Positions 1-370 of a DNA stretch of 443 bases are shown piece by piece. The notes below the pieces were generated by a model. That model was given only the letters and a program-made list of their open reading frames with translations, had not been told where the DNA came from and made no database searches. A program made the position numbers and the translations under genes. How positions within the stretch are numbered: position 1 is the first letter of the stretch; each line of letters opens with the position of its first letter. Origin of the DNA: Escherichia coli (GTDB lineage Bacteria > Pseudomonadota > Gammaproteobacteria > Enterobacterales > Enterobacteriaceae); assembly GCF_003334385.1 (NCBI RefSeq), contig NZ_QOWN01000180.1, one strand, 5' to 3'.

Positions 1-245
1 ATGCCGCTACACTTTAGCCAGCCCATGTTTTCCACCGGGGAATGGGCTGACGGTATCCATAAAGTGACAAACCTTTTCAACAACTGCCACATTGAACGGC
101 ACGGGTGATTTCGGATTATTGTCTCATGAAGCGCCTGCCACAACCGTTCGACATGATTCACCCACGGCGAGTAAACTGGCTGATAAATCATCCTGAACTT
201 CGGATCAATATCCGGCACTTCATTCTCTGATATCTCCGACCCGCA
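1..245 (-). pseudogene. IS630/Tc1-mariner-like (DDE_3-type) transposase, 5'-truncated C-terminal remnant; open frame runs off the window at position 1
   Basis: Minus-strand translation from 245 down to 1 is open for about 81 codons: [81 protein letters not shown]. The motif YSP-x-V-N-H-V-E-x-x-W has the same spacing as the IS630-family YSPxLNPIExxW motif that carries the catalytic Glu, and is followed by the usual basic/hydrophobic tail. An in-frame TAA (plus-strand 246-248) lies only about 32 codons upstream of that Glu, so the rest of the catalytic domain is absent. First in-frame ATG is at 192-194 with no good Shine-Dalgarno. Family call is from memory of motifs, not a search. Confidence 0.5.
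19..49. repeat. Inverted repeat with 8-bp arms (cagcccat / atgggctg) and a 15-nt spacer
   Basis: Read directly: 19-26 cagcccat is the reverse complement of 42-49 atgggctg; spacer 27-41 is gttttccaccgggga. It lies inside the minus-strand transposase remnant. No U/T run follows on either strand, so it is not an intrinsic terminator. Confidence 0.25.
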
Positions 246-250
246 TTAAT

Positions 251-370
251 CTGAAAGAAATAGAAATTCACTGGTGTGAAGTGCTACGTCTGGCGACCTC
301 AATAAAACAGGGAACAGTGACAGCATCCCTGATGCTGAGAAAACTTGCCAATTACCCCAAACAAAAGTAA
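251..370 (+). pseudogene. Tn3-family transposase (TnpA) internal fragment, truncated at both ends
   Basis: Plus-strand frame (codons at 251, 254, ...) reads [39 protein letters not shown] then stop TAA at 368-370. This resembles the conserved C-terminal-region block of Tn3-family TnpA, recalled as roughly HWDD-LLRLA-S-K-GTV-AS-LL-KL-AYPRQNGLA. The frame is open back to 197 but has no start codon or ribosome-binding site, and it stops where intact TnpA would continue. No Tn3-type 38-bp terminal inverted repeat is present. Confidence 0.7.

Follow-up and report, generated by a model that had tools for sequence, protein, structure and literature searches.

Large virulence plasmids of E. coli and Shigella, among them pINV, pO157, pAA and the plasmids of ETEC, carry dense arrays of nested and truncated IS and transposon fragments by their virulence or adhesin loci, and relics of IS elements nested near adhesin and toxin genes are well known from such plasmids. 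The stretch of E. coli DNA analysed here (the window, 443 nt) is of this kind. BLAST and profile searches found three broken pieces of mobile elements in it: a relic of the IS630 type, a relic of the Tn3 type and an end of the IS66 type. The same relics recur beside lpxM, virK and capU in ETEC plasmids and beside pet and senB in pAA-like plasmids, and the window does not differ in kind from the relic mosaics of virulence plasmids; only its joint is limited to one plasmid lineage.

Each of the three pieces has a described relative. ISEc33/IS630 belongs to the IS630 family (Tc1/mariner-like, with a TA target), and its transposase is about 85% identical in amino acid sequence to the IS630 relic over the C-terminal region that the window retains. 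Unlike ISEc33/IS630, the relic has lost its left end together with the first two of the catalytic residues, is frameshifted, and is incapable of transposition. The Tn3-type piece is 98-99% identical in DNA to genes that RefSeq assigns to TnEc1, a transposon of the Tn3 family known from E. coli plasmids, for example those of O55:H7, but the window lineage has only 54 codons of it, with no terminal repeats, resolvase or res site nearby. A literature search for TnEc1 yielded plasmid-annotation papers only, and one on IS-relic mosaics turned up nothing specific. Members of the IS66 family, as known from IS679 and IS66, have GTAAGCG termini and are flanked by 8-bp duplications.

All three elements come from known, named families, the same fragments in relatives have already been annotated by the RefSeq pipeline as incomplete transposase pseudogenes, and the finding is already known in kind. 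We consider it very probable that the window is non-functional scar tissue on an IncF-type plasmid of E. coli, made of three abutting mobile-element pieces, the first two of which meet at an illegitimate joint. Its biological weight would be small, that of a neutral scar like those that fill the virulence and colonisation plasmids of E. coli.

The IS630 and Tn3 relics

The IS630 relic occupies positions 1-203 on the minus strand and represents the 3' end of a transposase gene like that of IS630/ISEc33, as judged by BLAST, alignment and the NF033545 profile. The original prediction, made from the letters alone, had recognized an IS630-family relic on the minus strand and a Tn3-family tnpA fragment on the plus strand, and both are real. 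The IS630 relic covers profile positions 248-290 of 299 (E 6.7e-12), which is a fragment match below the full-length cutoff, and at the DNA level it is 97-98% identical to genes and pseudogenes annotated as IS630-family. Plasmid NZ_CP042297 carries an intact relative (L025 1501-2658) that is 1,158 bp long, has CTAAATA(A/G)CTG termini, encodes a 344-aa transposase, and is 96-97% identical in DNA to the relic. The window retains residues 279-344 of this transposase, and the relic corresponds to the last ~219 nt of the element. The right terminus of the element, CTAAATAACTG, was defined by five copies with different flanks; it lies next to TA, ~16 nt to the left of window base 1, and a TA adjoins it in three of the five copies compared.

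The relic has the transposase homology of the IS630 family. It does not have a complete catalytic domain or a full-length transposase, nor does it have two terminal inverted repeats with a TA duplication, and its left terminus is replaced by Tn3 DNA at base 204. It also cannot be read as a single frame from 245 to 1, as had been proposed. A 1-nt deletion in the T-run at 74-77 (T4 instead of T5) causes a frameshift, and the authentic frame ends with the stop codon at 9-7.

The terminal repeat has a second, degenerate copy (CTAAATAAGTGATAGTCTT...; L007, reverse complement, 4300-4331, and L011 2780-2835) immediately beyond the right terminus of IS630. This copy is common to the window lineage and to the plasmids with an IS481-family element that are described below, and it is not found at other IS630 copies. 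It may be a remnant of an older IS630 end.

The Tn3 piece, on the plus strand at positions 201-366, comes from the interior of a Tn3-family tnpA of the TnEc1 type (BLAST, alignment and the NF033527 profile). It covers profile positions 775-828 of 954 with an E value of 1e-15, and DNA that is 98-99% identical to it is named 'Tn3-like element TnEc1 family transposase' in RefSeq. Its 166 nt correspond to residues 788-841 (54 codons) of an intact 995-aa TnpA, with 94% amino acid identity, and are missing the N-terminal 787 and the C-terminal ~154 amino acids. Homology to TnpA is the one feature of the Tn3 family that is present; the ~38-bp terminal inverted repeats and a resolvase with res, or an equivalent, are not, and the flanks of the piece in L007 and L017 are the IS630 relic and IS66.

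The remainder of the window, positions 367-443 on the plus strand, is the left inverted repeat and leader of an IS66-family element, identified from the annotation of a relative, from BLAST and from both inverted repeats. The original prediction had only two elements. It extended the Tn3 fragment from 251 to 370 and missed the IS66 end.

Position of the joint

The IS630 and Tn3 relics are divergent, 5' end to 5' end, and each is without its N-terminal part; they abut at a point that is internal to both genes, as had been predicted. Local BLAST matched window positions 1-203 to an IS630-family pseudogene adjoining lpxM on the ETEC plasmid NZ_CP024237 (98%), and positions 201-443 to plasmid NZ_JBLWMF010000004 (L004; 99%), where a 'Tn3 family transposase' pseudogene precedes an IS66 element. 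Positions 367-436 also match a solitary IS66 end in the ETEC plasmid. In base-by-base alignments with L003 and L004, the IS630 parent tracks the window through ...AACTTCGG, and the Tn3 parent tracks it from CGGATCAATA... on. Beyond the joint, the IS630 parent goes on as ...CTTCGGGTTTGC and the Tn3 parent reads ...GTAAAGCGGATCAA. Both parents depart from the window exactly at the joint, and because they have only CGG in common there, the joint is at 201-203, a 3-bp microhomology on which the side-by-side alignments and the BLAST endpoints agree. Profile searches gave nearly the same point from the protein side: NF033545 begins to match at base 203 of the minus strand and NF033527 at base 200.

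The breakpoint had been placed by eye near 245-250, with the IS630 relic read from 245 to 1 and the Tn3 fragment from 251 to 370, and this placement is refuted. The open frames that speak for it are there as claimed: the minus-strand frame is open up to 245, with a stop at 248-246, and the plus-strand frame is open from 197, after a stop at 194-196, and closes at 368-370. However, bases 204-245 lie 100% within Tn3 context and have no relation to the IS630 parent, the Tn3 homology crosses 245-250, which the original prediction itself had named as a result that would refute it, the profile matches start some 45 nt further left, as do the DNA homologies, and the TAA at 368-370, where the Tn3 frame closes, comes from the IS66 inverted repeat. 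The minus-strand frame over 204-245 is a chance extension of 14 codons into Tn3-derived DNA and has no IS630 homology. That both frames stay open across the joint is due to chance, and it misled the by-eye breakpoint; frames open across a joint can shift such calls by tens of bases.

Occurrence of the joint

The exact window is present in at least 12 independent assemblies and belongs to an E. coli plasmid lineage in which ccdAB and a partition ATPase are nearby. The exact 24-mer at the junction was found in four ENA metagenome contigs and was absent from contigs representing one genome per species. Eight further contigs, reached via the neighbouring fimbrial chaperone, are 99.8-100% identical to the window, and six of these are NCBI assemblies. 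Among the records of PLSDB and 5,426 complete E. coli genomes, megablast breaks the window into separate matching pieces; no record spans the joint and none covers 80% of the window.

An assembler that collapses repeats could in principle make a chimera of this kind, since all three pieces are repeated elements, and several contigs do end inside the IS66 copy. Against such an origin, 12 contigs that differ in project, sample and assembler share the identical joint, the isolate assemblies among them have 10 kb of consistent flanks on each side, and the joint lies in DNA of unique context, 166 nt from the nearest full repeat. An artefact is extremely improbable, and for practical purposes it is excluded. 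The exact IS630, Tn3 and IS66 arrangement can serve as a lineage-specific marker for a plasmid family with an AT-rich chaperone-usher fimbrial module.

Formation of the joint

Alignments and comparison with intact copies revealed no coincidence of the joint with a terminus of either IS630 or Tn3. The IS630 coding sequence continues past this point elsewhere (to L003 3252 and to L005 ~5105), and the Tn3 tnpA sequence continues leftward past it in L004 and L009. Because there is no terminus at the joint and both parents continue beyond it as authentic coding sequence, a simple insertion is ruled out, which agrees with the earlier claim that a single insertion is insufficient. The joint is illegitimate and connects internal points of two genes that were already dead. 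Most likely, it was formed by a deletion that would have removed all of the DNA between the two points by way of the three shared bases, CGG. Use of the microhomology is suggestive only, and a 3-bp overlap is expected by chance at ~1/64 random joints. The ancestral arrangement, with the relics apart and DNA between them, was not found, and inversion or intermolecular joining are less likely alternatives. An illegitimate joint such as a deletion fits the successive events that the original prediction had guessed at.

An IS481-family element probably took part in formation of the joint. In three plasmid records (NZ_CP104790, NZ_JBTWTT010000003 and NZ_JBWDPW010000003; L011-L013), the IS630 relic runs to base 56 and is followed by a 1,094-bp IS481-family element with both of its ends, and then by TnEc1 tnpA from the equivalent of base 201. 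These plasmids and the window lineage have in common a degenerate flank to the left of the IS630 terminus. From the same IS630 relic, the same Tn3 breakpoint and the same degenerate flank, we conclude that the window-type and IS481-type arrangements are related by descent. The element could have set the Tn3 breakpoint and later been lost between flanking CGG repeats, or it could have inserted when the joint was already in place and gone on to delete IS630 bases 57-200. We give these two orders of events about equal weight.

If the IS481-family element came before the joint, it would have inserted in TnEc1 tnpA at CGGA and fixed the Tn3 boundary at 201; an IS-mediated rearrangement would then have joined its other end to the IS630 relic, and slippage between the CGG repeats would have removed it, whereas in the sister lineage it would instead have deleted IS630 bases 57-203. 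This is a real possibility that stops somewhat short of an even chance. It would explain why, in L011-L013, the IS481 terminus forms the boundary of Tn3 and falls on the same base as the joint in the window, and an IS-mediated deletion would account in one step for both missing 5' parts. The CGG overlap would be the expected residue of excision between short flanking repeats. However, two intermediates are predicted, with junctions that read AAAGGTAAAGCGGA+TGTATGGGTCC (left part of TnEc1 tnpA and IS481) and CCTGAACTTCGG(G)+TGTATGGGTCC (IS630 relic to base 203 and IS481). Chimeric queries found none of the former in the 5,426 complete E. coli genomes and none of the latter in those genomes or in PLSDB. 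An IS is seldom lost cleanly, and the target duplications of related IS481 copies (GAGA, ACAT) have no preference for CGG, so that its presence on the two flanks would take a coincidence of 1 in 64.

The opposite order begins with a plain microhomology-mediated deletion in which no IS took part; the IS481-family element would have entered later at CGGA, in one sub-lineage, and deleted IS630 bases 57-204 from its left end. We hold this to be just as credible as the first order. It calls on standard events only (illegitimate deletion, simple insertion and IS-mediated adjacent deletion) and is consistent with the distribution of the two types, the window type being widespread (its linked chaperone is in 460 index blocks) and the IS481 type rare, with three records. 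It does require that the IS, by chance, hit a joint already in place to within 0-4 nt, and for this order too no intermediate turned up. SNPs in the 166-nt Tn3 piece give no lineage order, and the window has just two private substitutions relative to near-identical DNA. The characters themselves conflict: the IS66 insertion of the window is as in plasmids of the L004 type, and its breakpoint at 201 is as in the IS481-type plasmids, which are without IS66. Because of this conflict, at least one extra recombination or parallel event must have occurred.

A rather tentative suggestion, put forward with slightly less confidence than either order of events, is that an IS481-family element first fused the IS630 relic to TnEc1 tnpA and was then cleanly lost, leaving the CGG joint, free of any IS, as its footprint. 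If so, the locus would show in nature how an element of the IS481 family can be lost, much as by excision, between 3-bp repeats, and L011-L013 would keep the boundary as it was before excision. The coincidence of the joint with the IS481 terminus would be a small natural case of IS elements creating, and possibly vacating, joints.

The 1,094-bp IS481-family element (L011 2909-4002; also L014-L016) has the ends TGTATGG...ACACAG and 4-5 bp duplications. Copies that are ~82% identical occur in more than 1,000 complete E. coli genomes, in several cases next to hok/gef toxin genes, and the RefSeq label for the element is often just 'integrase core domain-containing protein'.

Tests for function

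No function is indicated for the window. The joint could conceivably have made a useful hybrid gene, promoter or RNA, and there are two features that might be taken in this sense: an 85-codon ORF with a GTG start that spans the joint on the minus strand, and one weak sigma-70-like site at 148-177. The ORF is the frameshifted tail of the transposase with 5 chance codons. The single promoter-like site is not above what shuffled sequences give (0.5 expected), the same scan found no terminator, and an Rfam scan of the window had no match at E<=1. In addition, the sister lineage has deleted bases 57-200. A functional role for the joint is highly improbable.

The IS66 end and its later reshuffling

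The IS66 end begins at 367 with GTAAGCGTACAGC... and belongs to an element of 2,442 bp with matching inverted repeats and the gene order tnpA-tnpB-tnpC (TnpA, TnpB and TnpC family matches), so that both the GTAAGCG... inverted repeats and the three ORFs of the family are present. The window holds 77 nt of the element, and tnpA starts 16 nt past the window end. The target site, AAACAAAA, is at 359-366. In the L004 relative, an 8-bp duplication of this site flanks IS66 and the Tn3 tnpA resumes in frame on the far side. Because the 8-bp duplication is kept in relatives, IS66 entered by simple transposition.

The copy in the window lineage differs from typical members of the family in that it is a recombinant of two IS66 variants and is without the right-hand duplication, which was lost through later recombination. 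Over ~1.6 kb this copy (L007, reverse complement, 4716-7157) matches the L004 copy at 99-100% identity, which falls to 85-93% beyond that point, and the right flank of the copy is IS91-like DNA rather than tnpA. Because of the drop in identity at ~1.6 kb and the non-Tn3 right flank, we interpret the copy as a product of homologous recombination between two variants. In some contigs (of the L017 type) it stops after 547 nt.

Chimera and truncation of the IS66 copy support the general view that this region repeatedly takes up and rearranges mobile DNA. The same had been predicted, and related loci bear it out, with IS66 and its 8-bp target duplication, IS3, IS91 and IS481 elements, and the recombinant IS66.

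In ETEC plasmids (L003 3205-3328), the IS630 relic is 53 nt longer and is then truncated by a solitary IS66 left end of 70 nt, with an IS3-family element cutting into that end in turn. The truncation of the relic here is an independent event caused by the same IS66 family.

Plasmid neighbourhood and fimbrial operon

The IS630 relic of the window is one arm of a 224-nt inverted repeat with 98% identity (L005 219-442 and 4695-4918). The arms enclose a 4.25-kb chaperone-usher fimbrial operon of 32-36% GC (L007 4291-8540; L017 9612-14311), which encodes a chaperone of 247 aa, an usher of 812-813 aa and a FimG/StaE-like subunit of 186-199 aa. Neither megablast against 5,426 complete E. coli genomes nor blastn against PLSDB found a DNA match to the operon, and the chaperone is present in many E. 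coli draft assemblies and in gut metagenomes. The operon may be an uncharacterised plasmid-borne adhesin module.

Both arms carry the same 1-nt deletion, T4 instead of T5 (window 74-77; L005 4716-4918). Because they share this frameshifting deletion, the arms must have been duplicated or gene-converted after the death of the IS630 element. We also considered whether the arms and the operon form an IS630 composite transposon and rejected this: both arms are frameshifted relics without their outer parts.

About 3.5 kb upstream of the fimbrial operon there is a gene for an AraC/HilD-like regulator of 272 aa (L017 5636-6454, minus strand), with E 1e-30 to HilD, a match below cutoff. This arrangement recalls the Rns/AggR-type regulators of ETEC and EAEC fimbriae.
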